Source: an uncultured archaeon (GTDB taxonomy: Archaea; Thermoproteota; Nitrososphaeria; Nitrososphaerales; Gagatemarchaeaceae). Taken from it: a stretch of DNA of 64,000 nt. The DNA lies in the NCBI GenBank assembly GCA_963817525.1, contig CAWFOU010000007.1, positions 160,001 through 224,000 on the forward strand, in the 5' to 3' direction. How positions within the stretch are numbered: the stretch's first letter is position 1; every line of letters begins with the position of its first letter. A program made the position numbers and the translations under genes. Shown here in pieces: positions 5,347 to 45,876 of the stretch. A model generated the notes under the pieces. It saw nothing but the letters and a program-made list of their open reading frames with translations. It ran no database searches and was not told the DNA's origin.

Positions 5347-5347
5347 G

Positions 5348-8244: not shown

Positions 8245-8305
8245 AGTGAAGAGTCGATGGCATTTCGGCTGATAATGTATCTTTCGAAGGGGGACGGAGA
8301 CCGGG

Positions 8306-9139: not shown

Positions 9140-9372
9140 GACAAGCGGGTTTAAATAGGAGTGCCTCGCTATATCAGCTCGAGTTCCAAGGTCGAAAAAG
9201 GCGTGGAACGGACGTAGAGCAGGAGGGAGAACCGTGAAAGCGGTTGCTCCTTTCTTGACTCGCGGAATTTTACTTTAGCTCAAACTGGGAAGGCTGCGTC
9301 ATTTCGTTACACCCTGCGACGAACTCGGGTCGCCTGAAGGATTTAAGCCGCAGCAAAGGCCGTCTCGGACTC

Positions 9373-10626
9373 TTGGAGCCCAGGCCGGGCGGGAACCTCT
9401 GGCATCATAGGGAGTTCATGCGCTTCTGGTTCGCCGACACGGTGAGCCAGTTCGGCAGCCAGTTCAGCGGCTTCGCGCTGCCCGTGCTGGCGGTGTTGAG
9501 CTTCGACGCCACTCCCCTAGACATCGGCATCATCACCGCGCTGGCCATCATCCCATACCCCCTCCTCGGGCTCTTCGTGGGAGTCTGGGCGGACAGGTTC
9601 AGGAAGAGGAGGATAATGATGGCCTGTAACTTTGGGCGGATGGCGACGCTCGGCTCCGTCCCAATCGGCTACGTGCTCGGGGTCCTGAGCCTGAACCAAC
9701 TCTTCGCTGTGTCCCTCGCGACAGGGATATTCTCGGTCTTCTTCGACATCTCCTATCAGGCGTACCTCCCCATCCTCGTGGACAAGGGAGACCTCATCGA
9801 GGGGAACCAGAAGCTCCAGCTCAGCGCCTCGGGGGCCCAGGTCGCCGGACCCGGGATAGCGGGGCTGGTCTACCAAGCTATCGGCGGCGCGTTCACGGTG
9901 GCGGCAGACTCGGTCGGGTACCTGGTCTCGGCGATCACCCTCCTCACCGTGAGGAAGGACGAGGCTCCGAAGGTGAGGGGCGACGGGGACCCCGCGCCCG
10001 ACTTCTTCGGCGAGATGAGGGAGGGCCTCCAGGTCGTCCTCGGCAACAGATACCTGCGGATGATCGCGGGGAGTACGGCGACCAGCAACCTCGGCACGAA
10101 CATGGTGGGGGCGGTCATGACCATCTTCGCCCTGAGGGTTCTGCACTTCACGACCACGGAGCTCGGCTTCGTCGGGTCGATAGGGGCCTTGGGGTTCCTG
10201 GCGGGGGTCATAGTCGTGAGGCGTTTCACCTCCGGGGTCGGGCTGGGGAGGGTGCTAGCGCTCTCCATCACGGTGCCCGGAGCCTTCGTCCTCATGCCGC
10301 TGGCTCTCCTCGGATACCCCTTCCTTGTCCTTGCCACCGTCTCCTTCGTGGTCGGCCTGAGCGTGCCCGCCTACAACATCAACCAGATCAGCCTCAGACA
10401 GGCGATAACGCCTGACCGTCTCCAGGGGAGGATGAACGCGACCATGCGCGTCATAGTCTGGGGTACGATACCCGTCGGCTCGCTCCTGGGCGGCCTTCTG
10501 GGCAACGACGTGGGGGTGGTGGACACCATCTACGTGGGGGGAGCCGTAGCGGCGCTGGCTGGAGCGTGGATCGCGCTAGGCCCGGTGATGAAGCTGAGGC
10601 GCCAGCCCGAGCCGGTCGAGGGCTAA
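9373..10626 (+). CDS. MFS transporter
   Basis: About 12 hydrophobic segments; GVWADRFRKR motif A; PDRLQGR. Confidence 0.92.
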   Translation: MEPRPGGNLWHHREFMRFWFADTVSQFGSQFSGFALPVLAVLSFDATPLDIGIITALAIIPYPLLGLFVGVWADRFRKRRIMMACNFGRMATLGSVPIGYVLGVLSLNQLFAVSLATGIFSVFFDISYQAYLPILVDKGDLIEGNQKLQLSASGAQVAGPGIAGLVYQAIGGAFTVAADSVGYLVSAITLLTVRKDEAPKVRGDGDPAPDFFGEMREGLQVVLGNRYLRMIAGSTATSNLGTNMVGAVMTIFALRVLHFTTTELGFVGSIGALGFLAGVIVVRRFTSGVGLGRVLALSITVPGAFVLMPLALLGYPFLVLATVSFVVGLSVPAYNINQISLRQAITPDRLQGRMNATMRVIVWGTIPVGSLLGGLLGNDVGVVDTIYVGGAVAALAGAWIALGPVMKLRRQPEPVEG

Positions 10627-11085: not shown

Positions 11086-11526
11086 TTGCCCATGATAGAT
11101 GTCTACGCGCCGTCTGACCTCTTCCCTCCGGGGACGGACGGTCAGCTAGGGCACGAGCTCACGATGGCGGTGCTCCGCGCGGAGGGCGTCGCCACCCCGG
11201 GGCCGTTCCACCTCAACAACACGGCCGCGTTCATTCATCGGATGGACCCTCACGCCGTCCACACGGCCGCGACGGACTCCGCCCGCGTCGTGCGCGTCCA
11301 GGTCATCACGCCTCCCGGGGCGCTGGATCGCGAAGGGCAGAAGAGACTCGTCAAGGAGGTCACCGAAGCGGTGGCCAAGACCTCGGGCGACCCTACCCAG
11401 GCCGGCCGGACGTGGGTGATACTCACCGAGGCCGCGGAGGGAGGCTGGGGCCTTGCGGGGACGGCCTTTGGCCGCCAGGAGTTCGCGGACCTCGCCGCCA
11501 AGGCTGCCGCGGCGCGCGGGAAGTAG
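11086..11526 (+). CDS. Tautomerase superfamily protein
   Basis: N-terminal Pro after Met removal (MPMIDVY), double beta-alpha-beta size, WVILTEAAEGGWG. Confidence 0.8.
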   Translation: MPMIDVYAPSDLFPPGTDGQLGHELTMAVLRAEGVATPGPFHLNNTAAFIHRMDPHAVHTAATDSARVVRVQVITPPGALDREGQKRLVKEVTEAVAKTSGDPTQAGRTWVILTEAAEGGWGLAGTAFGRQEFADLAAKAAAARGK

Positions 11527-11553
11527 CCGCGCGACGTTTCGGGCTGACACAGA

Positions 11554-11847
11554 TCAGAGCGCGATTCCGAAGCCCTTGACAAAGGCCTCGGCCTTCCTGA
11601 CGTTGTCGATGAACTCAAGCCCCTTGGGCGTGAGCACATAGTATCTGCTGTCCTCCTCCTGCCTCTCCTCGAGGAGCTGCTTGTTCACCAGTTCTTGCAG
11701 GTGCTTGTTCAGCCTGTCGTAGGCTAGGTTGGCCTTCTGGAGGATGCGCGTTGGCTTGGCCCGCCCCTCGTCGCGGACCGTGACGAGGATGTCCAGGTAG
11801 GTCTTCAGCGTGCTGCGGGCCTTCTCAGGTTGAACCAATGCGTCCAC
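11554..11847 (-). CDS. Archaeal winged-helix DNA-binding protein (HTH_45-like)
   Basis: YLDIL...KPTRILQKANLAY...YVLTPKG; overlaps the upstream membrane gene. Confidence 0.85.
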   Translation of the reverse strand: MDALVQPEKARSTLKTYLDILVTVRDEGRAKPTRILQKANLAYDRLNKHLQELVNKQLLEERQEEDSRYYVLTPKGLEFIDNVRKAEAFVKGFGIAL

Positions 11848-12505
11848 TCCTTATCACGAAGGCCAGCAGAGAGAGGAATCCGAGGAACTGGACGGTCGCG
11901 GCGATGAGGTACTCGGTCCCGGAGATGGCGAGTATCGAGTGCAGGACGACCACGTGCCCGACGAAGATGAGCGCAAATCCCAGCAGGACGAGGAGCGAGG
12001 AGTTGTCGCGCCCCTTGGAGTAGATGAGGAACCCCTGGAAGATGATGAAGACGAGGATGAGGAGGATGACGAACTCGAGCCCAAGGTAGAGGTAGTAGAG
12101 CAGGAGGGCGAGCCCCACGAGCTTCGCTACCTTGGCCTTGGTCGCGTAGACAACGAAGCCAGACGCCGCCTCCGACAGGAGGCTAGTAGTCCTGCCGAAC
12201 GCGGCCTGCGCGTAACCTACGGCGATGACTAGCAGGGCGGCGACCTGCAGGAAGAGATAGACCAGGTTCTCTAGGAGCTCGAAGGTCCTGAGCCTGGTGG
12301 CGGACACGATGGTCAGCCCCAGGGAGACGGTGGTGACCGCCTCCACCAGGAGGGCGGCCCCGAGGAGCATGAATCCGAAGCTGATCGCGCTGAGCACGCT
12401 GCTGTCGATGAGCCTCCTAGCCTGGAAGGCGTAGTAGCTCACGAGCAGGGCGATTATTCCGCTGAAGAGGTCGAAGGCTACGACGAGAGGTATCGTGTCT
12501 GCCAT
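11825..12505 (-). CDS. Uncharacterised integral membrane protein (6-7 TM)
   Basis: Alternating long hydrophobic segments; coupled to the wHTH gene. Confidence 0.8.
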   Translation of the reverse strand: MADTIPLVVAFDLFSGIIALLVSYYAFQARRLIDSSVLSAISFGFMLLGAALLVEAVTTVSLGLTIVSATRLRTFELLENLVYLFLQVAALLVIAVGYAQAAFGRTTSLLSEAASGFVVYATKAKVAKLVGLALLLYYLYLGLEFVILLILVFIIFQGFLIYSKGRDNSSLLVLLGFALIFVGHVVVLHSILAISGTEYLIAATVQFLGFLSLLAFVIRSGRIGST

Positions 12506-13253: not shown

Positions 13254-14000
13254 TCACTTCCACTTTGTGAGTATCTCTTCCCTGCGGAAGGTGGCCGTCG
13301 TAACGAAGAAGAGGAGCACGTCGGCCGCGAGGACGGCGCCCGTGATGATCAATAGGTTCTCCACGGAGCCGAGGTCGATGATGCCGAGCTCTCCGCCGAG
13401 ATAGAGCCCCGCGAAGGGAAGGACTGAGAGGACGCCAACCTGCTGACCGGTCCTGACGTCGCTTATCCTCGAGGAGACTATCACGTTCATCTGGACGCTC
13501 ATCAACAACGCTAGCGGGGCCAGCACAAAGAAGGTGAGCACCGCCCCCCAGGTCGGGAAGTAGTAGTAGCCCAGCTCGCTGTGAGTGACGAGGTCGACGA
13601 GGCCCATGAACACCACCGATGCTCCCAATATTGCGACCAACGGCGGGAGGAAGGCCGCTAGCCCTTTACCAAGCAGGATCTCACTGTCCGTCGTGGGAGT
13701 GGCCAAAAGCGGCTCGAGGCTCTTCTCCACCTTCTCCCCAACCAGTGTATAAGACGCGATGGGTGTTGGGAGATAGGCGCCCAGTATCACGTAGAAGAAG
13801 CCGAAGGCGGGAAGGAGCAGCACCAGCTCTGCCGGTGGGATGCCGCTCGCTCCGTTCTTGCGTCCCGCGTACGCTAGAATTGCGGGAAAGAGGATGGTGA
13901 CTAGGGTTGGAACCACAGCCAGCGCGTAGATTATGTTCTTCCTCTTCCTGAATGTCTTGAAATCCTTCGCTGCGATGATCCAGGACTTTGATAGCTTCAT
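13254..14000 (-). CDS. ABC-2 type permease
   Basis: VGEKVEKSLEPLLATP motif and six TM segments. Confidence 0.9.
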   Translation of the reverse strand: MKLSKSWIIAAKDFKTFRKRKNIIYALAVVPTLVTILFPAILAYAGRKNGASGIPPAELVLLLPAFGFFYVILGAYLPTPIASYTLVGEKVEKSLEPLLATPTTDSEILLGKGLAAFLPPLVAILGASVVFMGLVDLVTHSELGYYYFPTWGAVLTFFVLAPLALLMSVQMNVIVSSRISDVRTGQQVGVLSVLPFAGLYLGGELGIIDLGSVENLLIITGAVLAADVLLFFVTTATFRREEILTKWK

Positions 14001-14921
14001 TCAGGGCAGCTCTTTCACAAGTTTCAGGTACGCGTCCTCGAGGGAGGAGCCGATGACGGAGACCGACTGGACGTTCCCCCCAGCCAGGACTATCGCGCCG
14101 ACGATGGCGGCGTTCTCCTTGTCCGGGTCCTTCACGTCGATCGTGAGCTTGTTTCCGTCTACCGACATTCCTGCAACTGGAAGATTCCGAAGAGCAGTAA
14201 GCACCGAATCGTTCACCTGCTCGAGCTGAATCACCGTCCTCCTGACCGTCACCTTGCCTTCGAGCTCCTCCGGAGTGCCGATCGCCATCAGTCTGGCGTT
14301 CAGTATCCCAATCCTGTCGCAGATCTTCTGTGCCTCGTCGAGGTTGTGGGTGTTGAGGAAGATGGTCCTCTTCTCTCTCTTGAGCTCCAAGATGAAGTCC
14401 CTGACGGTCTTCGATGACTCGGGGTCCAGGTTCGCCGTCGGCTCGTCCATGAAGAGGACCGTCGGGTCGTGTATGAGGGCGCGCGCTATGGCGAGCTTCT
14501 GCTTCATACCCTTGGAGAACGTGCCTGCCGCCACGTCCTTCTTGTCCCAGAGCCCCAGAAGGGTGAGGAATTTCTGGATGTTCTCCTTCCTCTGGGCCTC
14601 CGGGCAGTCGTAGAGCTTCCCGTAAAAGTCCAGGTTCTCATAGGCTGTGAGGTCATCGTAGAGGCCCACGTTGTCGGGCACCAACCCGATGAGCTTCCTT
14701 ATGTTCAGAGAGTCCGAATCCTTCCCGACGTCGTAGTCGCCTATCCTCGCCTCCCCGCTGGTCTTCGATATCAGGCAGCAGAGCATCCTCACGGTTGTGG
14801 TCTTCCCCGCCCCGTTCGGGCCCAGGAAGCCGAAGACTTCGCCCTGCTCGACGCGTAGGGTGACGCCGTCGACCGCGGTGAGGTCGCCGAACTTCTTGGT
14901 GAGGTTGGTGGTCTCGATCAA
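14001..14921 (-). CDS. ABC exporter ATP-binding protein
   Basis: GPNGAGKT, FSKGMKQK, MDEPT and H-loop. Confidence 0.95.
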   Translation of the reverse strand: MIETTNLTKKFGDLTAVDGVTLRVEQGEVFGFLGPNGAGKTTTVRMLCCLISKTSGEARIGDYDVGKDSDSLNIRKLIGLVPDNVGLYDDLTAYENLDFYGKLYDCPEAQRKENIQKFLTLLGLWDKKDVAAGTFSKGMKQKLAIARALIHDPTVLFMDEPTANLDPESSKTVRDFILELKREKRTIFLNTHNLDEAQKICDRIGILNARLMAIGTPEELEGKVTVRRTVIQLEQVNDSVLTALRNLPVAGMSVDGNKLTIDVKDPDKENAAIVGAIVLAGGNVQSVSVIGSSLEDAYLKLVKELP

Positions 14922-14975
14922 ACGCGTGCCCGGCGCGTGGACCTTTTGCCGCTTCTCAGATAACGCTTTGCTGGG

Positions 14976-17591
14976 TTATGAGCCGGTGGGCTTCCCGGAC
15001 GCCTGCTCCTCGGTCTTGGCGACGCGTTGGGAGATCTTGGTCGGCCACCAGTTGAACCTCTCGGCGAGTGCCATCAGGGCGGGGACGAAGAGGAGGATCA
15101 CGATTCCCACGTCGACTAGGACCGCGGCCGCCACGACGAAGCCTATCTCACCCAGGAGAGCAATCCTCGTGACTATGAGCGAACTGAAGACGGTCGCCAG
15201 GACCAGCCCTAGCCCGAATATCGTGACCCACACCTTGTCGAGGGCCGTCCTGATGGCGTCCCTGTCGGTCCTCCCGTTCAGGACCTCCTCACGGATCCTG
15301 GTCACGAAGAAGATGTCATAGTCTATGCCCACCCCTAGCATCGTCACCACGACGAAGAGCGGGGCAAAGTCGAGGATGGGCAGGCCCTGTGCATAGTAGT
15401 AGATTATGACGAGGAGGGCCATCGAGAACGCCACGCTGCAGAGTATCGTGAAGATCAGCCGGATCGGCGTGAAGGCGGATCTCAGCTGGATGAGAAGGAT
15501 GACGTACACCGCCGCGGCGAGGACGAGGATGACCTGTGGGAGGATTCCGTTGAGGAAGGACTGGCTGTCGTAGGTCGACTGGGTCTCCCCGCCGTAGTAG
15601 ACGGAGACTCCCTTCAGGAGCGGCTGGTGGGAGACCGCCGACTCGACCTTGAGGAGCGTGTCGATCGCCGCCTGGCTCTGGCCGTCGCTCTGGAGCCCGA
15701 CCATTATCGAAGCCGTCTCGTTGTTCGCGCCGATGTAGGAGAGCATCCCGGCGAGGTACTGCTCCCGGACGGGCACGGGGAGCTGCGCCAGGCCTGTGTA
15801 GTTGAATGGCGTGCCGTACGGGCTGGTCGGCCCAGTGGAGCTGACGACCCCGGGGACGGAGGAGGCAGCGGAGCTGATCTGCTCGATCTGCTTGAGCAGG
15901 GTCTGGTTGAACTGGTCGTCGCCGTACACGATGGGGGTGGAGGTGGTCACGACTATCGAGGTGGGCGCCGTCGCGGCGCTCCCCAGCTCGTCGGTGATGA
16001 CCGTGAGGCCTTGGTTGGACGGGAAGTCGGGGAAGAGCTTCAGGATGTTCGCGCCGCTGGGCGCGCTCTGTGAGAGGTAGAACGCGCCGAGGGCCAGGGC
16101 GGAGACCACGAGGATTATCGCGATCCTCTTGTCGATGGTGTTCTCCGCCAGGCTGTTCAGCCGGGAACGCTTCGGGCGCTGGACCAGCTTGGTCCTGTTG
16201 AGCCCGGGCCAGAAGAGGCGGTCCTTGAGCGCTAGCTCGAGCGACGGGAGGAGCGTCAGGGCGGCGAGGATGAGGATCGAGACGGCGATCGCGATCGAGG
16301 TGCCCACGCCGCTGAAGAGCGGGACGTTGGCCACCGCCATCACGATGTAGGCGACCACCACGGTTATCCCCGCGGTGAGCACCGCCTGACCCGCCCACCG
16401 GACTGACGTCGAGACGCTGTCCTCGGTTGACTTGCCGTTCAACCTCTCCTCCCTCGTCCTCCTGAGCTGGAGGACGGAGTAGTCGATGGCGAGCCCCAGG
16501 GTGAGCAGAATCGTCAGCGCGGGCGTGAGGAACGTGAGCGTGCCGTGGCCGAGGATCGTGACGCTGTAGTAGATGGTGGGGAGGGCGATCGCTATCGCGA
16601 TCCCTCCGACGATGACGGGCACGATTGCGGCAAGCGGTGCCAGGAGGAGCACCCCGACTATCGCGAGCGCCGCGAGGACGCCCGGGACGACGGTTATCCC
16701 GAGGACAGGCCCGAACACCTTCGAGATGTCCTGCGTGAGGACCGCGCCGCCGGTCACATAGTAGGTGCCCAACGCGGGGATCGCCGAGCTCCCTATGTCG
16801 GACCTGAAGGCGGCTATCATGTCGGGGCTGGGCGCGCCCGCGAAGTTGTAGATCACGATCATCGTGCTGTTGTCGGGGCTGACGAAGTTGCTCGTCAGGG
16901 AGCGGGAGAGCACGAGCGGGTAGTCCGTGTAGGACTCGTTCGCCACGGCGGCGAGCTCCGCGGCGCGGACCTGGGAGGCGCCGGTCCCCGAGCCCAAGGA
17001 TGAGAGGAAGGCGCCCATCCGGGCCGCGTTGACCTTGAAGAGCGGGGAGCCGGATAACGAGGAGGCGCTGCCGTTGGCGACGAGTTGCGACGCGACGTCC
17101 CACGACTGCTGGGCCGTCAGGGGATGGCCTGCGGGGGCCATCGCGGCCACGCTCGAGTTGAGCTGGGAGACCTGCGCCACCAGCGAGGGCATGACGGAGG
17201 CCAGGAAAGAGTACTCCGTGCTGAAGACGCTGCTCAGCCCGGTGAAGTTCTTCGCCAGCGTGTGGTCTGTGGCCACGGTCTGGTTGAAGGCCAAGACGGC
17301 CGACTCCACGGAGCTCGAGTAGACCGGGCTGCTCTGGATCACCACGATGATCCCGTCGTCGCTCGAGTTGACAGAGCGGGGGAACTGCGCGTTGATGATG
17401 TTCTGAGCCTGCTGCGACTCGGAGTTGGTGGGTCCTCCGAAGCTTGAGCCCGCCACGTTGTATGAGACGTGGCTGAAGAAGACGGAGATCTGTGAGCCCG
17501 CGACGATGACCGCGATGATCCACGCTACGATGATGAGCTTGTGATACCTCCTAAGGAAGGAGTTGAACGGGTCGAACCTTGAGCGTGCCAA
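14976..17591 (-). CDS. MMPL/RND family transporter
   Basis: Duplicated halves with GLAIDY and GVGIDY..RIREE; two large extracellular loops. Confidence 0.92.
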   Translation of the reverse strand: MARSRFDPFNSFLRRYHKLIIVAWIIAVIVAGSQISVFFSHVSYNVAGSSFGGPTNSESQQAQNIINAQFPRSVNSSDDGIIVVIQSSPVYSSSVESAVLAFNQTVATDHTLAKNFTGLSSVFSTEYSFLASVMPSLVAQVSQLNSSVAAMAPAGHPLTAQQSWDVASQLVANGSASSLSGSPLFKVNAARMGAFLSSLGSGTGASQVRAAELAAVANESYTDYPLVLSRSLTSNFVSPDNSTMIVIYNFAGAPSPDMIAAFRSDIGSSAIPALGTYYVTGGAVLTQDISKVFGPVLGITVVPGVLAALAIVGVLLLAPLAAIVPVIVGGIAIAIALPTIYYSVTILGHGTLTFLTPALTILLTLGLAIDYSVLQLRRTREERLNGKSTEDSVSTSVRWAGQAVLTAGITVVVAYIVMAVANVPLFSGVGTSIAIAVSILILAALTLLPSLELALKDRLFWPGLNRTKLVQRPKRSRLNSLAENTIDKRIAIILVVSALALGAFYLSQSAPSGANILKLFPDFPSNQGLTVITDELGSAATAPTSIVVTTSTPIVYGDDQFNQTLLKQIEQISSAASSVPGVVSSTGPTSPYGTPFNYTGLAQLPVPVREQYLAGMLSYIGANNETASIMVGLQSDGQSQAAIDTLLKVESAVSHQPLLKGVSVYYGGETQSTYDSQSFLNGILPQVILVLAAAVYVILLIQLRSAFTPIRLIFTILCSVAFSMALLVIIYYYAQGLPILDFAPLFVVVTMLGVGIDYDIFFVTRIREEVLNGRTDRDAIRTALDKVWVTIFGLGLVLATVFSSLIVTRIALLGEIGFVVAAAVLVDVGIVILLFVPALMALAERFNWWPTKISQRVAKTEEQASGKPTGS

Positions 17592-17656
17592 CCGTTTTTC
17601 GGGCCTTTGAATACTTCATTTAAGCCTTGGGAGTGCGGGGGCCAATCTGCAAGCCC

Positions 17657-18826
17657 TCACGAGTCGCCCTTCCTGCCGAGGAGGAGGGGTACTACGAGGG
17701 AGACCGAGAGGATCCCGAGGATGATCAGCGAGTAGGCGAGCCCGTCTATCAGGCCGCTGCCCAGGGCGACCGAGGCGATCACTATCCCGACCGCGCCCCT
17801 CCCTCCGAGGGTGACCGCGATCTGCTTGGCAGCGTCCCGCTCGCCCACTTTGAGGATGTTCTTCACCGCGAAGTAGCTGAGGCCGATGCACAGCACGAGC
17901 GCCACGGCGACCACTACCGCCAGCCTCGGGATGTACTCGAACTGTGACGCGGAAAGATCAGCCTCGAGACCGGCGAGCCCGAAGAAAAGCGGGATGAAGA
18001 GCGCCCTGTTCATCCTGGCGAAGGTCGTCGATATCTCGTGGAAGGCCTTCCTACCGATGAGGCCGTCGTGCACTATGAGGCCCGCGAAGAACGCACCGAT
18101 GATGTAGCTCAGCCCGATCGCCTGAAAGAGGCCCGCCACGAAGAGGCCCACCAGGATGAGGATTGCGTAGGACATATCCTCGCGCCTCACGAGCTTCCCC
18201 GCCCTCTCGACCAACCGCCGAAAAGCGGTGGGCCTGAAGTTGAGCACCCAGTCAACGACTACCAACGCCACGATCAGGATGCCCGTGTAGGCCACGACCG
18301 AGACTGTGCTCCGGACCGGCTGTGATATCGCCACCAGCAGGACGAACGCCACGACGTCGGCCACCGTCACGGTCGAGAGGATCACCCGCCCGGTCTCCTT
18401 CTCCAGCAGGTTGTACTGCATCACCAGGACCGAGATTATCGATATCGAGGGCACGGCGACCGCCATGGCCACCACGAGGTCTGAGACCGCCCCGAAGGGG
18501 AAGAGAAGAAGGCAGAGCGCGAAGCCCGCGAACATCGGGACGATGAAGGCGGTGTCAGCGAGGAGTATCCCGTGGAGGATGTGCTTCCTCACCATCTCCG
18601 TGTTCATCTCGAACCCGATCAGGAATATGATGAAGAAGAGCGCCAGCGAGGAGATCGCCTGCACCTGGACGTTCGTAGTCACTACGTTCAAGATGGTCGG
18701 GCCCAGGATCAGGCCGCTCAGGAGCTCGCCCGCTACGGAGGGGAGCCTGAACTGCTCGAAGACCTCACCCGTGAGGATGGCCGCCGCGAGGACAATCAGC
18801 ACCTGGATGATTATCTCGTAGGTCAA
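17657..18826 (-). CDS. Cation:proton antiporter (CPA2/Kef-type)
   Basis: LPSVAGELLSGLILGP, IIGAFFAGL, FIPLFF and RGAVG. TTG 18826 preferred; the ORF opens at 18892. Confidence 0.9.
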   Translation of the reverse strand: MTYEIIIQVLIVLAAAILTGEVFEQFRLPSVAGELLSGLILGPTILNVVTTNVQVQAISSLALFFIIFLIGFEMNTEMVRKHILHGILLADTAFIVPMFAGFALCLLLFPFGAVSDLVVAMAVAVPSISIISVLVMQYNLLEKETGRVILSTVTVADVVAFVLLVAISQPVRSTVSVVAYTGILIVALVVVDWVLNFRPTAFRRLVERAGKLVRREDMSYAILILVGLFVAGLFQAIGLSYIIGAFFAGLIVHDGLIGRKAFHEISTTFARMNRALFIPLFFGLAGLEADLSASQFEYIPRLAVVVAVALVLCIGLSYFAVKNILKVGERDAAKQIAVTLGGRGAVGIVIASVALGSGLIDGLAYSLIILGILSVSLVVPLLLGRKGDS

Positions 18827-37280: not shown

Positions 37281-38393
37281 CTACCTGCTTTCCAGAGGGA
37301 TGTAATTCAGACCCTTCTTTCCGATGTAAGTGGCGTCGGGCCTGTATATCCTGTTGTCCATCAGCTGCTCGTTGTAGTGAGCGACCCAGCCGACGGTCCT
37401 GCTCGAGGCGAAGATGGGCGTGAAGGTCTCGATGGGGATGCCCAAGGTCATGAAGAGCGGGGCGGCGTAAAAGTCGACGTTCGAGGGGAGCTTCTTGAAC
37501 TCCCAGGCGGCGTTCTCTACGGCCTCGCAGAGCTTGTAGATGTCGAGGCTCTTCTTTTCCTTTTCGAGGAGGTCCCTTAGGAGCTTCTTCGCTAACTGGG
37601 AGCGCGGGTCGACGGTCTTGTAGACCCTGTGGCCGAAGCCCATTATCTTTTCGCCCTTGGCCAAGGTCTCCTGGACGTAGGGTCTCGCGTTGTCAGCGGT
37701 CCCTATCTTGAGGAGCATCTGCATGGCCGCCTCGTTGGCTCCCCCGTGAAGGGGCCCCTTGAGGGCGGCGAGCCCCGCGGTGCACGCGGCGTAGATGTCC
37801 GCCAACGTGGAGGCGACCACCCTCACGGTGAAGGCCGAAGCGTTGAGGTCGTGCTCCAGGTATAGGATTAGCATCCTCTCGAAGCACCAGGCCTCGTAGC
37901 TCGTGGGCTTCTTCCCGGTGAGCATGTAGAGGTAGTTAGCGGTGAGGCTGAGGGACGGGTCGGGCTCGGCTGGCTCCATCCCCTTGTTCAATCGGTAGCA
38001 GTTGGCCACTAGGGCCGGCATCTGCGCGATGATCGAGAGCTTCTGCTCCTCCGACGAGATTCCCCCCTCGGTGGCGCCCAGCCCAGAGACGGCAGTGCGC
38101 AGGACGTCCATCAGGTGCGCCTCGCGGGGTATCTCCTTGACGAGCTGGTAGACGTTGCGGGGGACGAGCGAATACCTCCTCAGCTTCGCCTCGAACTCCG
38201 CCAGCTCTCGCTTCTTCGGGAGCCTCCCGTACAGGATCAGGTAGGTGGACTCCTCGAAGGTCGAGTGCTCGAAGAGGTCATTGATGGCATACCCGCGGTA
38301 GATCAGCGTGCCGTCCGAGTCGCTGATCGCAATGCTGGTGTCCGCTACCGCGACTCCGTCGAGCCCCTTTGGGGCCCGGAGTATCTCTGCCAT
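37281..38393 (-). CDS. prpC: Citrate/2-methylcitrate synthase
   Basis: HDLNASAF, GPLHGGAN, GFGHRVY and NVDFY. Specificity inferred from prpD/prpB context. Confidence 0.85.
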   Translation of the reverse strand: MAEILRAPKGLDGVAVADTSIAISDSDGTLIYRGYAINDLFEHSTFEESTYLILYGRLPKKRELAEFEAKLRRYSLVPRNVYQLVKEIPREAHLMDVLRTAVSGLGATEGGISSEEQKLSIIAQMPALVANCYRLNKGMEPAEPDPSLSLTANYLYMLTGKKPTSYEAWCFERMLILYLEHDLNASAFTVRVVASTLADIYAACTAGLAALKGPLHGGANEAAMQMLLKIGTADNARPYVQETLAKGEKIMGFGHRVYKTVDPRSQLAKKLLRDLLEKEKKSLDIYKLCEAVENAAWEFKKLPSNVDFYAAPLFMTLGIPIETFTPIFASSRTVGWVAHYNEQLMDNRIYRPDATYIGKKGLNYIPLESR

Positions 38394-38663
38394 GCGAGGT
38401 TCAGAAGCAATAAACCCGATATTAATGGTTATAGACGATATATAACCTGCTCTTAGTCGTCATTCAGGCGCTTTAGGGACTCGCAACCCCAATCGTTTCC
38501 CGCTTTTACCCGTCGGTTGCCATCATTCGAGAAGCAATACGCCGTGAAAAAAAAAGCAAAGCCTACGCGCTCCGGAGGCTTAGGGCGCTTTCGCCTAAAA
38601 AGGGGCGGAATCCGACGTGGGAACTTCCGCACGCGAAAGCCCCGAGGGGGACGCACCCGGTTG

Positions 38664-39116
38664 ATGGCAAGGAGGGGCAGGGATTCCGGGGCGCCCCTGC
38701 ACCGCCATAGGCCGTGAGAGGAGTGGGGCGAGATTACGTCCAAATACAAGTCGGGCGCACTCCTTAGGGAACTCGCGAAGGAGTATGACCTGTCCCAGAA
38801 ATATATCACCGCCTCCCCGCATGGAGAGCTCCCAGACGAGGACACCCGGGCGATAGGCAGAGCGCACAGCGCGAAAGCGAGTGCAGAACGCCCTCACACA
38901 GTGAGCGACCGGACCAGGGAGAAGATGCGCCAGGCCAAACTCGGGCACGTGGTTAGCGCCGATACCAAGGAGAAGATGCGCCAAGCCGGACTCCGCCACT
39001 GGGCGCTTGCGCGCAGACTCGAGGACAGCAATGACCCCTCTCTGGACCCCTATTTGGACGAGATAATTCGGATTCCATGGGGGTGGGTCGTCGCGGTCTC
39101 GGAGACCGTCCTCTGA
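38664..39116 (+). pseudogene. HTH plus NUMOD3-like repeat protein interrupted by an in-frame TGA
   Basis: MARRGRDSGAPLHRHRP*EEWGEITSKYKSGALLRELAKEYDLSQKYI...HTVSDRTREKMRQAKLGHVVSADTKEKMRQA in one frame; TGA at 38715-38717. Confidence 0.6.
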
Positions 39117-39270
39117 TGGCCAAGAGGGGCAGGGACGGGTGCAGGGGTGGGGGCGACGGGGTTCGTGGTCGTGGTGGCAGCACAGTCGTAGACTACGGCG
39201 CAGCTCCCCGTCGGGTCGGTACTGCTCTCCTGGTTGTCTAGGGCGTAGATGTACCGGTCGAGGCTCTGGG
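39050..39270 (-). pseudogene. Orphan Rhs cassette remnant (core end plus start of an alternative C-terminus)
   Basis: PQSLDRYIYALDNQESSTDPTGSCAVVYDCAATTTTN copies the main Rhs junction, then diverges and truncates. Confidence 0.85.
39161..39268. repeat. Direct repeat R1, copy b (pairs with 41060-41167)
   Basis: First 60 nt identical, then few mismatches over about 108 nt; spans the DPTG junction. Confidence 0.95.
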
Positions 39271-39282
39271 GGGATTTTTCAT

Positions 39283-39510
39283 CTATCGCGTGGATAACGC
39301 CGAGATATTGGTCTGTTTTCTGTAATTCCTCCATTTTTTGGAATTGTCCCATGTAGCTATCACAAAAACGGCGAAAGAAAGAAGCTTAAGGGCGCCGGTT
39401 GTCAATGGTGCGAGCTTCAATTCATTTACGAGCACTAGAACAGCAACTTCAAAAGCTACTAATGACAGTCCAACAGCACAGAATTTCCATTCCGTTCTAT
39501 CCAGGATCAA
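39283..39510 (-). CDS. Putative 2-TM immunity protein of the orphan cassette
   Basis: AT-rich, two hydrophobic helices, TTG start after GGGGG, directly downstream of the orphan tip. Confidence 0.6.
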   Translation of the reverse strand: MILDRTEWKFCAVGLSLVAFEVAVLVLVNELKLAPLTTGALKLLSFAVFVIATWDNSKKWRNYRKQTNISALSTR

Positions 39511-39521
39511 ATGCCCCCTTA

Positions 39522-39939
39522 TCAGCCAAACAAGTTGAAGAAAAGTCCTTCAGCCCACGTGTCTAGTCCTTTTTGGGCCATAAAATTTGGATTGTTCCAG
39601 TTATTGTAGGTGTAGATGACTTCGTCGCCCTCAGGACAGCACTGAAGGTCCGGCCACGAAAGCGGCACCACCTGTGCCTAGCCCGGCTACTATAACCAAT
39701 GCGATCGCAGTAATACCAATGATGTTGTCGAGCATTAGTCCATCCCGGTTTGAAGTTAAACCGGAACTATTTGCCGTAGCCGGTACATCCGAACTAGCAG
39801 TTGTTGAAATACTCGTCGTCGTTGAACTCGTCGAAGGTGACGACTGCGTCGAGGTATTGGGCACGAAACCCGACCCCGGAGTCCCATCGGAGACATTGGC
39901 CAGGCAATGTGAGCACGTGGTCTGGGACGGACCGCCCAA
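39522..39939 (-). pseudogene. Orphan alternative Rhs toxin tip (frameshifted)
   Basis: CSHC..GTPGSGFVPNTSTQSSPSTSSTTTS stalk copy, then a different hydrophobic tip IIGITAIALVIVAGLGTGGAAFVAG. After TGA 39631 a +1 frame continues EGDEVIYTYNNWNNPNFMAQKGLDTWAEGLFFNLFG*. Confidence 0.8.
39811..39887. repeat. Direct repeat R2, copy b (pairs with 40697-40773)
   Basis: 77 nt with 2 mismatches; encodes the GTPGSGFVPNTSTQSSPSTSSTTTS stalk. Confidence 0.95.
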
Positions 39940-39976
39940 TCCCGATGGAGATGATTTCCGTCACTGGGAGGAAGCT

Positions 39977-40378
39977 TCATATCGCATTTTTGCCCTTCGA
40001 AAATGATTTTCTCATCGAAATGGCTTTGCTCATGACCGCCGCGTAGTAACCGAGTTGCGGAACACCGCTGAGTATCAGGACAATAAAGGCGTCAGAGAAT
40101 GCAGATTGATTATGCCCCACAAAGAAGAATACTTCTACGGCCAAGCTGGCATCCATGACTGCTATGGAGGAAAGAACCCACCTTCGCAATCTTGGAAGAA
40201 ACTGGTCAAGAGTTTTGAACGACACAAATTGCTCGTTCATCTTCAATGTGAGAGCCCCCGAAAAGATTAGCAGTGGAACCTCAAACGATTTCGCAAAGAA
40301 AGGGACGACAAAAAACGCAAGAAGAAGAAGCAACACGAATGAGAGATTTGTAAGACGGTGGAATACCCTCAAGGACAC
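39977..40378 (-). CDS. Putative 4-TM immunity protein of the main Rhs toxin
   Basis: AT-rich, four hydrophobic helices, starts 12 nt after the Rhs stop. Confidence 0.7.
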   Translation of the reverse strand: MSLRVFHRLTNLSFVLLLLLAFFVVPFFAKSFEVPLLIFSGALTLKMNEQFVSFKTLDQFLPRLRRWVLSSIAVMDASLAVEVFFFVGHNQSAFSDAFIVLILSGVPQLGYYAAVMSKAISMRKSFSKGKNAI

Positions 40379-40390
40379 TATCGAGAGAAC

Positions 40391-43300
40391 TCACACCCAC
40401 TTGGAAAGTGCCGAAGCAAGCAACCCGAGTCCAACCGCTAGAATTGGACCGCCGACCAATACATCGTCAGCTTCAATGGCGGGAACGAGGACGATTCCAA
40501 CGCCGGTGGAAGACACCGCGATTGACGTTACGACCCCACCAAAGAGGATGCCTGCTCCCGCCAGAGTGAGACCCAATCCGATGAGGAATTGATCGCCGGG
40601 GCTATAACTGTTCCACTCAGAAGTCAACGGGCAGAGGTTCCCGCAATCCAGACCCGTACCGACAACAGAGTTCGAAGATGAAGCGGTCGACGTGACACTC
40701 GTCGTCGTTGAACTCGTCGAAGGGGACGACTGTGTCGAGGTATTGGGCACGAAACCCGACCCCGGAGTCCCATTCGGGGCGTCGTTTACGCAGTGCGAGC
40801 ACTCGGGCGTGGAAGAGGATGTGGAAGAGGATGTACCAGAAATAGGCGGGGTGCTCACGACGGGTGGCGGCGTGGGCGGTGGCGACGCAACGCAGGTGTA
40901 GGCGAAGCACCCGCTGGGCTGCGGTGTGGGCGCGGCGGCAGGAGCAGGTGCAGGGGTAGGCTGGGGATCATACGGCGGCAGGGTTTCCACTACAGAAGTC
41001 TCCACTACAGAAGTTGTAGGCGCAGGGGTGGAGGTGGGGGCGGGGGCGGGGGCGATGGCGTTCGTGGTCGTGGTGGCAGCACAGTCGTAGACTACGGCGC
41101 AGCTCCCCGTCGGGTCGGTGTTGCTCTCCGGGTTGTCGAGGGCGTACGTGTACCGGTCGAGGCTCTGCGGGTCCTCCGCGACGCCTGGGAAGGTGTCCTG
41201 GGTGATGAACCTCTGGATCGAGGGGTCGTAGAACCTGGCGCCGAAGTAGTAGAGGCCTGTCGAGCCGTCTATGGGCTTGCCGCTGAACTGGAAGTAGGCT
41301 TGCCCGTCCTTCTGCCAGTTGGCGCCATAGGGCTTGTAGTCGGTGCTGAAGAGGGTGTTTGACGTGCCCTCCATCACCTGCCTGACGCTCCCGCTGGCGT
41401 CGTCGAGGTAGAAGTAGGAGTAGCCGCACTCGCACTCCTCCTCGAGCAGCATGCCGTTGGCGTAGTAGTACTTGTCGACCGCGCCTGACCCGGTGTTCTT
41501 CTCGTAGATCAGGTTGTTCCCCTCGTAGATGTACACCGTGGTCTGCGTGCCCTGCACGCTCTTTATCCTCTCACCGTCGCTGTCGTACGTGTTCGTCTGG
41601 ACAGTCGAGCCGCCCTTCGACACGCTGGTGAGTTCGTTGTCATAGTTGTACGAGTAGTGCCAGGTCGTCGACCCGTTGACGAGCTCCAGCAGGTTCCCGT
41701 TGTCGTCGTAGGTGAGGCTGGCGCTTCCGACCGAAGTGAGCTTGTTGTTGGCGGCATACCCGTAGGTCGTCTTCACGCTGTTCTGTGTCACGCTCACGAT
41801 GTTTCCGGCCGCATCGTAGTTGTAGTCGATGGTCCCCCAGGAACCTGTCGCGGTGGAGAGGCGGTTCAACCAGTCGTAGGTGTAGCTGTCGCTGTTGATG
41901 CTGAGGACGTTGCCGACGTTGTCATAGGTGTAGGCGAGGTCCATCTCGGTCGTGATTCCCGACATTGCGACGATGCTCGTGGGCAGGTCTGTGCTGTTGT
42001 ACGTGTAGGTCGTTTGAGCGCCGTTCTGGTAGGTTATCGTGTTGATCTTGTCGTCGAGCGTGTACGTGAAGTTCACCGCGTGGTCGTTCATGCTCGTGAC
42101 CCTGTTGAGAGCGTCGTAGGTGAAGGCATCGGTGGTGCCGTCGGGGTACTTTATCGAGAGGATGTTGCTGGCCTTGTCATATGTATAGAGCACCTGGTAT
42201 TTGGCTCCGGCTATCGTGTCCGTCTCGTTGGTCAGGCGGTTCATCGCATCGTATGTGTAGTTGTCGATCGACCCAGAATTGCTCTCGGTGATGATGTTCC
42301 CCGCTTTGTCGTAGGTGTACGAGATGCTGGAGGACCCTGGATAGGTGACCTTTGTGAGCCTGTCCAGTGGGTTGTACGAGTAGCTCGTCGTGTTGTCGTT
42401 GCCGTCAGTCAGGCTTTGCAGGAGGCTGTCTGCGTCATAGGTCTTGGTCTCGTACGTCGCGTCCGGATAGGTGGTCTTTATCAGGCGGTTTAGGTCGTCG
42501 TACTTGTAGCTCGTGACGCCTCCGTCAGGATTTGTGCTGTTCACGAGGTTCCCCGCAGCGTTGTATACGTATGTGGTCGTGTTGTATGCCCCCGTCTTGT
42601 AGTACTCCCTCACGCTGGTCAGGAGGCCGTCCCAGTTGTAGACGTCCTGCGTCTCGTGGCCGTCGGGGTCCGTCACCGTCTTGATATTGTTCACGTCGTT
42701 GTAGGAGATCGTCTCGGTTCCAGAAGGACTGATCTCCTTGATGAGCCGGCCATCCTGATCGTAAGTGTAGTAGGTGGTGTGCCCTGTGGGGGTGGTCTCG
42801 TGCGCGACCTCGTTGTCCCAATTGTAGGTGTAGCTGGTGGTGGAGTACAGCGTATCGCCGTTGAATGTTTGGACAGATGTCAGCCGCCCTAGGCCGTCAT
42901 AGGTCTGGTTCACTATGTTCCCGTCGGGGTCGGTCATCTTGACGACGTTGTGGGTGTTGTCGTAGGCGTAGGTCTCGACCGACGTCGACGCCCCCACGGT
43001 CGGGTACGTGATCGTCAATACCCGATTCAGAGCGTCGTACGTGTACGAGGTGGTGTGCCCGTCCGGGTCGGTCTGGGAGAGCAAGTCCCCGGTCGAAAGC
43101 TGGTAGGTGCTGGAGCTGGTGGTGTTCACGCCGCCCACGTCGATGCTCGTCATCGTCGGGTATGCGTAGGAGTACGTGGCGGAGTAGTCGACGTCCGTCG
43201 TGTTTCCGAGGGGGTCGGTCGCCGAGATCTGGTTGCCGTAATGGTCGTATGCGTAGTTCGAATAGAGCCACGAGGCGCCGTCTAGCTGCTTGGTCTGGAG

Positions 43301-44920
43301 CACGTCCCCCGCCGCGTCATACTTGTAGTAGGTCTCCATGGGGACGGTCCCGTTTGCGTTTTGGAACGAGGCTTCCCCCACCAGCGCGTCGTGGATGTTC
43401 GAAGAGACCACCAGCGGAGTATAGAAGCTGTTGGAGAAGCCAGAGACGCCGAACGTGTCCTGGGAGTCCGTGTTAGCATAGGAGTAGTACGTCTTGTCGC
43501 CGACGTTGTCCTCGCTGTAGATCAAGTTCCCCCAGTTGTCGTATGAGAACTGCGAGCTTGCGAGCAGAGAGAGCGTGGGCGACAGCAGCTTTGTCTCGTT
43601 GATCTGACCGGCGGTGTTGTAGTCGTTCTCGGTGATCCGCACGATGCCGTTCGTAGAGTTAAGGTCGTAGATCCTCTCCAGGTTGTTCGAGTTCTGGAAG
43701 TTGAAGTCTAGGAAGCCCTGCGTAGCCGTGCCGTTCGACATCGTGGAATTCGACCACGTCACGAGCCCGTTCGTGATCGCGTAGGAGGTGCTCAAACTCT
43801 CGGTGAGTGAGGGGAGCGCCGTCGACGAGTAGATGTTCCTTGCGCTCACGGCGTAGAACGTCACCTCGGTTCCGACGGCCTGGCCCGCGTAGGAGTAGGT
43901 GTCTCCGCCCAGGGTGGGATAGATTATTCCCGTAAGGAGCCACCGATTGACTCCGTCGTTGTACTCGTAGCGGGTCACCCTGCTGAGGGGGTCCGTGAGG
44001 CTGACGAGGTTGGTTCCTACGTAACCGAAACTCCATGTGCTTCCGCCCGAGCTGATCGAGCTCAGCTGGCCGTTACCATTGTACGAGAAGGTAACAGTCC
44101 TGCCGATCGTGTCTGTGATCTGGGAGATCTGGCCGGACGAGTACTCGAACGAGATGGTGTTGTTGCCGGTGCTGTCGGTTATCGAGAGCAGTTCCTTGTC
44201 AGAGGCGTAGTGAAAGTCTATCCCGGAGGGAAGATAGAGGTCGTAGGTGCCGCTGCCGCTGTTCTGCACGAGCTCGAAGTCGGTCGCGTTGTTGACTGTC
44301 ATGGTGTCGCCCACCCAATTGTAGGGGTACGCCCCCCCGTCCGCGAGATGGACGTAGTTCGTGCCCAGCCACGGGAAGTTCAGAGCCCAGCCGTTCCCGA
44401 GGTCGGCGAGGGTGAAGTTGTCGTACTCGAAAGGCGAGTCGGAGCGGAAGCCGTAAGGCTGGGTGTAGACCAATCCGATGTCCAAGTTCAGCCCTCCTCT
44501 CCCCGTGAGCGCCAGAGTTCCCTGCTCGATCGAGAGGAGGCCGTTCCCCGGAGACACGACCTCCGAGAGCTGGTTGAAGTATGACTCGTACGGTGAGATC
44601 CCTGCTTGGCTCCAGGAGTTCGGCGAAGCGGGCGCTATCGGGACCACGGGCGGGAACGAAGCGAACACGACGTCGTACGGCGACGAGCTCCCCGTGGTCC
44701 ACGCGACGGAGACGATGGAGTCGCTTATGGGACCGGCCGTGGCCGTGAACGGCTGCAGGTTCGCCTGGTCGCTCGTCAGCGTCTGCTTGGGTCCCCAAGT
44801 CACCCCCAGGTTGGTGCTCACAAAATAGTAGACGGTGGACTCGGACTGGTCGGCCTCGAAGGCCACGAGGGTGTCCTGTCCGTCGGTGGAGATCGTCTTC
44901 GACGAAGACAACTCGAACAT
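40391..44920 (-). CDS. Rhs/YD-repeat protein with Pro/Thr/Ser stalk and hydrophobic C-terminal tip
   Basis: Many YxYD repeats (YTYDALNR); core TGLYYFGARFYDPSIQRFITQD...YALDNPESNTDPTG (PxxxxDPxG); Asp-box-like STNLGVTW near the N-terminus. Confidence 0.95.
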   Translation of the reverse strand: MFELSSSKTISTDGQDTLVAFEADQSESTVYYFVSTNLGVTWGPKQTLTSDQANLQPFTATAGPISDSIVSVAWTTGSSSPYDVVFASFPPVVPIAPASPNSWSQAGISPYESYFNQLSEVVSPGNGLLSIEQGTLALTGRGGLNLDIGLVYTQPYGFRSDSPFEYDNFTLADLGNGWALNFPWLGTNYVHLADGGAYPYNWVGDTMTVNNATDFELVQNSGSGTYDLYLPSGIDFHYASDKELLSITDSTGNNTISFEYSSGQISQITDTIGRTVTFSYNGNGQLSSISSGGSTWSFGYVGTNLVSLTDPLSRVTRYEYNDGVNRWLLTGIIYPTLGGDTYSYAGQAVGTEVTFYAVSARNIYSSTALPSLTESLSTSYAITNGLVTWSNSTMSNGTATQGFLDFNFQNSNNLERIYDLNSTNGIVRITENDYNTAGQINETKLLSPTLSLLASSQFSYDNWGNLIYSEDNVGDKTYYSYANTDSQDTFGVSGFSNSFYTPLVVSSNIHDALVGEASFQNANGTVPMETYYKYDAAGDVLQTKQLDGASWLYSNYAYDHYGNQISATDPLGNTTDVDYSATYSYAYPTMTSIDVGGVNTTSSSTYQLSTGDLLSQTDPDGHTTSYTYDALNRVLTITYPTVGASTSVETYAYDNTHNVVKMTDPDGNIVNQTYDGLGRLTSVQTFNGDTLYSTTSYTYNWDNEVAHETTPTGHTTYYTYDQDGRLIKEISPSGTETISYNDVNNIKTVTDPDGHETQDVYNWDGLLTSVREYYKTGAYNTTTYVYNAAGNLVNSTNPDGGVTSYKYDDLNRLIKTTYPDATYETKTYDADSLLQSLTDGNDNTTSYSYNPLDRLTKVTYPGSSSISYTYDKAGNIITESNSGSIDNYTYDAMNRLTNETDTIAGAKYQVLYTYDKASNILSIKYPDGTTDAFTYDALNRVTSMNDHAVNFTYTLDDKINTITYQNGAQTTYTYNSTDLPTSIVAMSGITTEMDLAYTYDNVGNVLSINSDSYTYDWLNRLSTATGSWGTIDYNYDAAGNIVSVTQNSVKTTYGYAANNKLTSVGSASLTYDDNGNLLELVNGSTTWHYSYNYDNELTSVSKGGSTVQTNTYDSDGERIKSVQGTQTTVYIYEGNNLIYEKNTGSGAVDKYYYANGMLLEEECECGYSYFYLDDASGSVRQVMEGTSNTLFSTDYKPYGANWQKDGQAYFQFSGKPIDGSTGLYYFGARFYDPSIQRFITQDTFPGVAEDPQSLDRYTYALDNPESNTDPTGSCAVVYDCAATTTTNAIAPAPAPTSTPAPTTSVVETSVVETLPPYDPQPTPAPAPAAAPTPQPSGCFAYTCVASPPPTPPPVVSTPPISGTSSSTSSSTPECSHCVNDAPNGTPGSGFVPNTSTQSSPSTSSTTTSVTSTASSSNSVVGTGLDCGNLCPLTSEWNSYSPGDQFLIGLGLTLAGAGILFGGVVTSIAVSSTGVGIVLVPAIEADDVLVGGPILAVGLGLLASALSKWV
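40697..40773. repeat. Direct repeat R2, copy a
   Basis: Matches 39811-39887. Confidence 0.95.
41060..41167. repeat. Direct repeat R1, copy a
   Basis: Matches 39161-39268. Confidence 0.95.
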
Positions 44921-44964
44921 GAAGGACGAGCGCCTCGTGAAGACGCTGCACCCAAGGCCCTAAG

Positions 44965-45876
44965 CTAGCCCAGGAGACGAGACCCCTTCCGCGCGGTCTC
45001 CTTGTCAGCCCTCTCTAGGGAGCGGTAGTCCGTGAGCTCGTAGAACTCATCCCTGGTCATCATCTTCTCGAGGAGGGCCTTCTGCGTCCCCGACCTGGAG
45101 AGCTGCCGGAGGGCGTCACGCATCGCCTTCATCGCTACCCGGAAGGTCGTCACGGGGAAGATGACGAGCTTGTAGCCCTCGCCCAGCCCCGCAAAGTCAG
45201 ACAGCGAGAGGTAGGGAGTCTTGCCGAACTCCGTCATGTTGGCGAGCAGCGGCCCCCTCACCTTCTTCGCGAACTCGGCGAACTCCTCCCTGGACTTTAG
45301 GGCCTCTGGGAATATCACGTCCGCCCCCGCTCTCTGGTAGAGCCTCGCCCTCTCCACCGCCCCGTCGAGCCCCTCGGTCTCCGCGGCGTCGGTCCTCGCT
45401 ATCACGACCAGCTCGGTCTTGGCGGCTGCCTTGGCCGCGATGACCTTCTTCGCCATCTCGGCTGGCTCGACCACCCCCTTCCCGTCGAGGTGCCCGCACC
45501 TCTTGGGCATGACCTGGTCCTCGATCTGTATCGCGGCCGCCCCGGCCCGCTCCATCTCCCGGACGGTCCGGGCGACGTTGACCGCTTCCCCAAACCCCGT
45601 GTCCACGTCGACGATGAGCGGCAGCGAGGGCACGACGGCAGTTATGCGCGCGGCCGCCTCGGCGACCTCGGAGAGGGTGGTTACCCCGAGGTCGGGCAGA
45701 CCCATGGAGTTCGAGAGGGCGGCCCCGGAGAGGTAGAGGCACTGGAATCCTGCTTCCTCGGCCAGCAGCGCGACGGCCGGGTTGAAAACGCCGGGTGTTG
45801 CAATCGTATTCTTCCCCGAGAGGAGCTTCCTAAGCCTCGCGCCGGGGTCGGCAGCTGGCCTCTTCGCGGGGGGCAT
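44965..45876 (-). CDS. prpB: Methylisocitrate lyase
   Basis: DVDTGFG, IEDQVMPKRCGH, ARTDA and ANMTEFGKTP. Confidence 0.95.
   Translation of the reverse strand: MPPAKRPAADPGARLRKLLSGKNTIATPGVFNPAVALLAEEAGFQCLYLSGAALSNSMGLPDLGVTTLSEVAEAAARITAVVPSLPLIVDVDTGFGEAVNVARTVREMERAGAAAIQIEDQVMPKRCGHLDGKGVVEPAEMAKKVIAAKAAAKTELVVIARTDAAETEGLDGAVERARLYQRAGADVIFPEALKSREEFAEFAKKVRGPLLANMTEFGKTPYLSLSDFAGLGEGYKLVIFPVTTFRVAMKAMRDALRQLSRSGTQKALLEKMMTRDEFYELTDYRSLERADKETARKGSRLLG

Follow-up and report, generated by a model that had tools for sequence, protein, structure and literature searches.

Classical RHS polymorphic toxins with cassettes have been described in Methanosarcina acetivorans, in a study whose portion at hand also calls such systems rare among archaea (Zhang et al. 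2012, PMC3482391). A later source, again in the portion at hand, cites Makarova et al. 2019 (mBio) for widespread predicted archaeal polymorphic toxin systems, and states that as of 2021 none had been characterized experimentally and that DNase and RNase were the commonest toxin moieties (PMC8416519). In Pseudomonas aeruginosa, the Rhs shell of Tse5 (PA2684) chaperones a 16-kDa integral-membrane pore-forming fragment; killing needs cleavage, and the immunity gene is tsi5 (PMC10684867, portion at hand). How the abundant but uncultured Thaumarchaeota of soils compete is not known. We describe here an Rhs locus in a stretch of 64,000 nucleotides (nt) of contig CAWFOU010000007.1 from an uncultured thaumarchaeon, hereafter the window, and consider it probable that the locus belongs to the polymorphic Rhs toxins, carries membrane-hairpin tips and is 5'-truncated in the window strain.

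The locus resembles the classical systems of bacteria and M. acetivorans, as far as the portions of the sources at hand describe them, in its YD shell, a core with PxxxxDPxG, a variable C-terminus, small downstream open reading frames (ORFs) and orphan cassettes, and also in the signal-peptide-like N-termini of its relatives. It differs in its thaumarchaeal host, in a window copy that lacks the N-terminal export part and appears to be maintained as a signal-less allele, in a second junction within a Cys-paired Ser/Thr/Pro linker, in hydrophobic tips and candidate immunity ORFs that lie outside any described family, and in a hydrophobic segment that is nearly universal among the tips. As in the archaeal systems predicted by Makarova et al. 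2019, a long first gene is followed by homologues of its C-terminus and by adjacent candidate immunity genes, but the tips here are hydrophobic hairpins, whereas those of the predicted systems are mostly DNases or RNases (PMC8416519, portion at hand). The likeness to Tse5 consists of an Rhs shell followed, past an aspartyl-protease junction, by a hydrophobic, putatively membrane-inserting fragment in the place of an enzyme, for which the evidence here is compositional; the Tse5 tip measures 149 amino acids (aa; 16 kDa) and the tail in the window 237 aa with a 170-aa low-complexity linker. Unlike Tse5, which is delivered by a type VI secretion system (T6SS), the protein in the window comes from a genome in which we found no PAAR or VgrG.

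A preliminary description of the window had presented the locus as an undescribed system. That claim was not borne out: because both the Methanosarcina RHS cassettes and the pore-forming tip of Tse5 have been described, the kind of system is already known, and the Methanosarcina toxins (PMC3482391), the archaeal predictions (PMC8416519) and Tse5 (PMC10684867) all precede it, to judge from the portions of these sources at hand. The literature found on polymorphic toxins of Thaumarchaeota (including PMC6393860), in the portions at hand, describes no thaumarchaeal Rhs locus, although one may already be listed in Makarova et al. 2019 or its supplements. With its short hydrophobic tips, tiny candidate immunity genes and naturally tip-swapped alleles, the family offers a compact and testable case.

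The Rhs gene, its tail and the downstream cassettes

The main gene (40391..44920, minus strand) encodes a 1509-aa Rhs/YD-repeat protein. Pfam RHS_repeat (PF05593) matched 14 stretches of the protein (E 2.6e-74) and NCBIfam YD_repeat_2x (TIGR01643) matched it at E 3.3e-48; a precomputed PF25023 annotation on P0001 also supports the presence of YD/RHS repeats. The RHS-associated core domain was located at aa 1195-1272 (41105..41338, minus strand), where Rhs_assc_core (TIGR03696) scored 62.4 bits against a cut-off of 32.5 (E 4.2e-17, positions 1-75 of the 76 in the model), and a separate class-wide scan for RHS cores recovered the domain at the same place. The last DPxG of the protein, DPTG at aa 1269-1272, is preceded by a proline at 1263 and so completes the PxxxxDPxG motif, which is the presumed autocleavage site and the first recombination junction. 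The preliminary description had named a 1509-aa YD-repeat protein with an intact core of this type, and the profile matches and motif position bear it out.

The host assembly (G000) consists of 15 contigs with a total of 2.82 Mb, a completeness of 95% and a contamination of 8.75%. A genome-wide translated search detected only this one Rhs locus, together with its two orphan fragments. The earlier placement of the host as a TACK archaeon fits, the same-genus genome G006 being that of Thaumarchaeota archaeon isolate AcS1-13. The statement that the window holds no T6SS, PAAR or VgrG gene also holds, and can be extended: searches with PAAR (PF05488) and VgrG (TIGR03361) gave no match in the whole 95%-complete genome, and positive controls were detected.

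The tail that follows DPTG comprises 237 aa (23.0 kDa) with 8 Cys, and Ser, Thr and Pro make up 53% of its first 170 residues. By composition it begins as a Ser/Thr/Pro-rich linker with paired Cys (Cx2-5C; 40592..41104, minus strand), which holds the second junction module, CSHC...GTPGSG.VPNTS, within a DNA repeat at 40682-40813 (repeat D6). The module is common to the second orphan tip described below, a gene of a relative (G006_a) and the protein P0008 of a second strain, and similarity stops just past it. The linker is followed by tip 1 (aa 1444-1506; 40403..40591, minus strand), in which hydropathy reveals Gly-rich hydrophobic segments split by an EADD loop, with 1 Lys or Arg in the last 20 residues; we regard it as a candidate membrane-inserting toxin. 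An ORF starting 13 nt past the Rhs stop (39977..40378, minus strand) has several predicted transmembrane (TM) segments and is the candidate immunity gene for tip 1. Public gene calls differ, one giving an 89-aa form with two segments and another a 133-aa form; the 133-aa product has hydrophobic segments at 5-40, 67-89 and 97-116, which amount to three to four segments.

Two orphan fragments lie farther downstream. Orphan tip 2 (39631..39939, minus strand; supported by repeat, translated search and hydropathy) opens at the CSHC module and then has a Ser/Thr stretch unlike that of tip 1 and a single hydrophobic segment; 39796-39927 is 80% identical to 40682-40813 over 132 nt, with a translated match at E 3.6e-13. 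It is followed by a 75-aa ORF (39283..39510, minus strand) with two hydrophobic segments and a TTG start after AAGGGGG, a candidate immunity gene for tip 2. Orphan 3 (39050..39352, minus strand; repeat D3 and translated search) is a remnant that contains the end of the core, DPTG and the start of the linker and is then broken off; 39125-39272 is 89% identical to 41024-41171 over 148 nt (translated E 9.6e-22). Given their length and identity, both repeats are far beyond chance. The G+C fraction is 0.455-0.537 across 39200-40399 and 0.62-0.69 in the flanks. The AT-rich TM gene behind tip 1, the second tip with its own two-TM gene, the third junction remnant and, with them, the overall layout of Rhs polymorphic-toxin loci, in which a conserved core that ends at a DPxG junction bears variable tips and is followed by small ORFs and orphan tips, were thus all found as they had been described.

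Searches for homologues of the tail and the small ORFs returned little beyond the sequences themselves. A protein homology search with the tail (aa 1273-1509) matched only its own protein among the best 8000 candidates scored, and a full HMMER scan of 1.84 billion representative proteins with aa 1395-1509 returned its own protein and three spurious repetitive ones. The 133-aa ORF product matched only its own sequence in 5.8 billion clusters and was present in 0 of 96 genomes of the family, and the exact sequence of the 75-aa product had no match in the public protein collection. Neither the tips and small ORFs of the window nor the soluble tips of relatives and the ORFs downstream of them matched a family in Pfam, NCBIfam or PHROGs.

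Exchange of tips between strains and among relatives

P0008, the second member of the 90% cluster of the window protein, is a 1514-aa protein from another assembly, where it is named 'RHS repeat-associated protein'. It has the same N-terminus as the window protein and is about 99.5% identical to it up to approximately aa 1400, with 7 differences over aa 1-1300. Small insertions and deletions occur in the Pro-rich linker, and after GTPGSG.VPNTSTQSSP the two proteins part, P0008 ending in an unrelated tip in which an acidic loop separates two Gly-rich helices. Variable tips on a conserved core, which the preliminary description had set as a check, were therefore observed between near-identical strains, as well as among nine genes of relatives that differ past DPxG. 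Tips that are invariant among strains would have spoken against a toxin locus, and the tip of P0008 is unrelated to tip 1.

Further strain variation was detected in four sequencing runs that contain the stretch (X1-X4), DNA runs of one study that are labelled soil metagenomes and may include the source sample; their contig cover of 39335-40669 is absent or patchy in parts. Run X2 carries a 6-nt in-frame deletion at 41036 that corresponds to the 2-aa gap of P0008. A second strain is represented by a contig of X4 that spans 38551-39272 and is 98% identical there, with 13 differences over 722 nt. Past 39272, its next 30 letters match the core sequence from 41172 on at 29 of 30 positions, in place of the 75-aa ORF, indicating that orphan 3 is joined to Rhs-core-like sequence in the X4 strain.

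We also compared the locus with those of related archaea. The protein query matched 16 of 61 related genomes including G000. Within the genus 10 of 22 genomes matched, within the family 14 of 36, and among other families of the order 1 of 24. In an even sample of the class (G000 included), only 10 of 301 genomes had the RHS core domain, and comparison of this figure with the 10 of 22 obtained with the protein query in the genus suggests that the trait is lineage-enriched. Seven larger loci from five genomes were compared, with nine Rhs genes or gene halves that are 41-65% identical to the window protein. Where an alignment extends as far as the end of the core, it breaks off at query aa 1272-1307, on DPTG or shortly beyond it. 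An all-against-all comparison of thirteen post-DPxG regions (three from the window, nine from relatives and that of P0008) confined the similarity to two parts, the opening 15-29 residues and the CSHC module of 20-26 residues, with two exceptions: the terminal parts of G002_C47 and G006_a match (29% over 85 aa), and the match between G006_a and P0008 extends past the module.

The tails follow two plans, as judged from raw ORFs and a Kyte-Doolittle scan, on which the hydrophobic segments and small TM ORFs called in relatives are based and which yield small numbers. In the first plan a Ser/Thr/Pro/Cys linker precedes a hydrophobic end (the main tip of the window, orphan 2, P0008, G006_a, the G006 orphan, G027_C6, G002_C47 and G003_C57); in the second, a Gly-rich hydrophobic segment stands directly past DPxG and a soluble domain of 150-200 aa follows (G006_b, G027_C4 and G002_C12). 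The tip of G034 is short and unclassified, with TM ORFs behind it. A hydrophobic segment is present in all tips of the family except that of G034 and the cut-off orphan 3. The preliminary description had proposed to look in relatives for variable tips with TM genes downstream. The tips do vary. A small TM ORF on the same strand lies behind four of the seven hydrophobic-ended tips with locus data; behind each of the three soluble-domain tips stand soluble ORFs, and a TM ORF behind none of them. A soluble toxin in these last relatives may use the hydrophobic segment to gain entry.

The three arrangements with a Gly-rich hydrophobic segment directly past DPxG and a soluble domain without a family are at L016:6857-7846(-), L017:7946-8935(+) and L015:17772-18761(+); the common part of the soluble domains of L016 and L017 is a short K-Q-Q-L-G-D-Y motif only. 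A first impression that the soluble tips are restriction-endonuclease-like was dropped, as no tool supported it. The closest relative, L015 (G006:C80:1-20000), has two full-length Rhs genes at 4623-10013 and 13575-18764, with masked N runs near their 5' ends. The opposite strand carries, between the two genes, an orphan (11474-12280) in which a core end is joined to a tip, and behind it a 173-aa ORF. The layout is that of the window in a richer form.

Insertion into the methylcitrate gene cluster and the 5' end of the gene

The Rhs gene and its cassettes lie between a 2-methylcitrate synthase gene (37281-38393) and prpB (44965-45876). In each of the five same-genus relatives examined, the 2-methylcitrate synthase gene comes next after prpB, with prpD behind it; one of the five, G017, carries a 146-aa gene between prpB and the citrate synthase gene, intact at L024:2080-2564 and on the minus strand there. 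DNA similarity to the same-genus relatives ends at about 38432 and resumes at about 44892. Judged by the gene order of relatives, DNA similarity and G+C, the whole 6.5-kb block is an inserted island in the methylcitrate gene cluster (38433..44890, boundaries approximate). It gave no match in Rfam, and its cassette region matched no plasmid. A relic of the last 22-34 codons of a G017-type 146-aa gene was identified at 44859..44957 on the plus strand (tblastn E 3.3e-8, 56% over 34 aa), and the insertion removed the remainder of that gene. The Rhs ATG (44918-44920) lies antisense inside this relic, and for this reason the first ten or so codons of the Rhs ORF are not Rhs sequence.

The genes of the relatives are longer at this end. 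All nine have 210-550 or more extra residues before the point that aligns with query residue 4-10 (or later), and by this alignment the main gene in the window is 5'-truncated relative to every one of them. A hydropathy scan flagged signal-peptide-like starts in L017, L019 and L021, and inspection by eye added L016 and the upstream piece of L015b; masked N runs, a contig end, a downstream gene half or a later start prevented a judgment for the other four. The truncation and the loss of the signal peptide had been missed in the preliminary description. A misassembled 5' junction was considered and rejected, since contigs of three runs span it, namely X1 (44696-45605), X3 (44593-45457) and X4 (44826-45112), and P0008 begins in the same way.

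Toxin, surface anchor or relic

In the toxin system that we favor, the full-length proteins of the family, 1700-3400 aa long, would be exported by an N-terminal signal peptide. Bacterial Rhs/YD systems include Sec-exported ones of the WapA type as well as T6SS Rhs proteins. The YD-repeat shell would end in the RHS core domain, the chain would presumably be cut at DPxG, and the piece behind the cut would be the exchangeable cargo, here the Ser/Thr/Pro/Cys linker with a short Gly-rich hydrophobic hairpin. The hairpin may insert into the membrane of a neighbor and dissipate its potential, like the Tse5 tip in Pseudomonas, and the small TM ORF behind each tip may act within the membrane to protect the producing cell. 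Recombination at the two conserved junctions, the DPTG core end and the CSHC...GTPGSG module, would bring in new cassettes of tip and ORF, and displaced tips would stay downstream as orphans.

A number of observations weigh against this proposal. Neither the tip nor either small ORF has a homologue or family match that ties it to a known toxin or immunity protein, so that we infer toxicity and immunity; the membrane-active, non-enzymatic warheads and cognate immunity proteins of the preliminary description were not supported, their basis being hydropathy and gene order. Orphan tip 2 weakly, below threshold, resembles the stalk-and-anchor families Mid2 and Podoplanin, and the 237-aa (23-kDa) tail exceeds the 15-16-kDa cargos of solved Rhs shells quoted in PMC10684867. 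The host genome encodes 19 ORFs of at least 200 aa in which a Ser/Thr/Pro stalk leads to a TM helix at the C-terminus; about 11 of these are paralogues. At the other end of the protein, hydropathy detected no hydrophobic or signal-peptide-like N-terminus, and two queries with the N-terminal region of the relatives found it nowhere in the host genome. The ATG sits in antisense relic DNA, and the 44 nt from the prpB stop to it contain no TATA-like or GGAGG-like element by eye. One X3 contig (depth 3.7) has a frame-breaking 1-nt insertion at 44331, which may be an error, and the sequence differences discussed below come from low-depth metagenome contigs of possibly more than one strain.

The features of the tail would also suit a surface-displayed YD-shell protein for adhesion or kin recognition, in which the linker would be a glycosylated stalk, the hydrophobic end an anchor or identity determinant, and the TM ORFs would supply partners for it in the membrane, much as in IdsD/IdsE and similar self-recognition pairs that are non-lethal. 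We hold this to be unlikely, though it deserves serious attention. The 19 host ORFs share the plan of a Ser/Thr-rich stretch followed by a hydrophobic C-terminus, the Mid2 and Podoplanin resemblances and the missing toxin family match point the same way, the tail is large for an Rhs cavity, and the eight Cys in Cx2-5C pairs suggest an oxidizing, exposed location. The stalk-like composition is thus present, but the signal peptide with which the copy here would reach the surface is absent, and so is the basic tail of the native anchors. Native anchors have a signal peptide and one TM helix followed by 2-6 Lys or Arg; within the last 20 residues all 19 have 2-6 (median 3), as opposed to 0-1 in the three Rhs tips, which are in addition exchangeable. 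Two of these three tips (tip 1 and that of P0008) are hairpins with acidic loops and not single anchors, orphan tip 2 being a single hydrophobic segment. Moreover, a core end that is complete and of the autocleavage type would cut the shell loose from an anchor, and an anchor does not explain the three relatives with a soluble domain past the hydrophobic segment and soluble ORFs behind it. Toxin and immunity fit better, because the core end is intact, the tips are exchangeable and accompanied by small ORFs, the cassettes are low in G+C, and the relatives' soluble cargos stand beside soluble ORFs.

The paralogous surface family among the native proteins lies outside the window (G000 contig C7:1535-41715 and other contigs). 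In its roughly 11 copies a Ser/Thr stalk is combined with a C-terminal anchor that is nearly identical among them and ends in a basic R-G-R-K tail. The proteins are about 820-850 aa long, apart from shorter copies or fragments (334-549 aa).

The 5' end raises another alternative, namely that the locus is the decaying relic of a former polymorphic toxin system that was inactivated by deletion of the 5' end and signal peptide, and that it now consists of a not-yet-degraded pseudogene and spare cassettes without present function. Besides the truncation, the position of the ATG and the lack of visible upstream signals, the cut-off orphan 3, overlapped by an unrelated startless frame, and the possible frameshift variant in X3 favor this idea, and decay does occur in the group, as Rhs matches in G015 and G053 are interrupted by stops. 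On evidence that points both ways, we nevertheless judge it improbable. The frame is open across 1509 codons in two assemblies. Among the single-letter differences listed in the ORF across the four runs, 13 of 17 are synonymous, and P0008 shares three of the four amino-acid changes; the synonymous excess suggests that the truncated gene is still under selection. Because the two truncated alleles differ in their tips, a cassette must have been gained or lost at least once since the truncation. Furthermore, 44 nt separate the Rhs gene from prpB, which precedes it on the same strand, and read-through transcription is therefore possible.

A signal-less Rhs allele that looks selected is a concrete puzzle. 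As a speculative extension, which in its full form we think unlikely to be correct, the family could be a contact- or proximity-dependent thaumarchaeal membrane-toxin system in which the Gly-rich hairpin of every exchangeable cargo would insert itself into the single membrane of neighboring archaea, depolarizing it alone or serving as an entry device for the soluble domain of the relatives. Exchange would take place at the second, lineage-specific junction in the Cys-paired linker, and the signal-less allele would be kept under selection and released independently of Sec, by vesicles or lysis.

One further frame lies at the edge of the cassettes. It is open from 38718 to 39116 on the plus strand (132 codons), has its first start codon only at 38901, and overlaps the cut end of orphan 3. 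It matched no family in Pfam, NCBIfam or PHROGs, and a second copy was not found in the genome. It resembles the DNA-binding tail of a homing endonuclease, although no family match confirmed this. After a helix-turn-helix-looking stretch, a tandem 48-nt repeat (38901-38948 and 38952-38999, 77%) encodes ...EKMRQA..G.. units.

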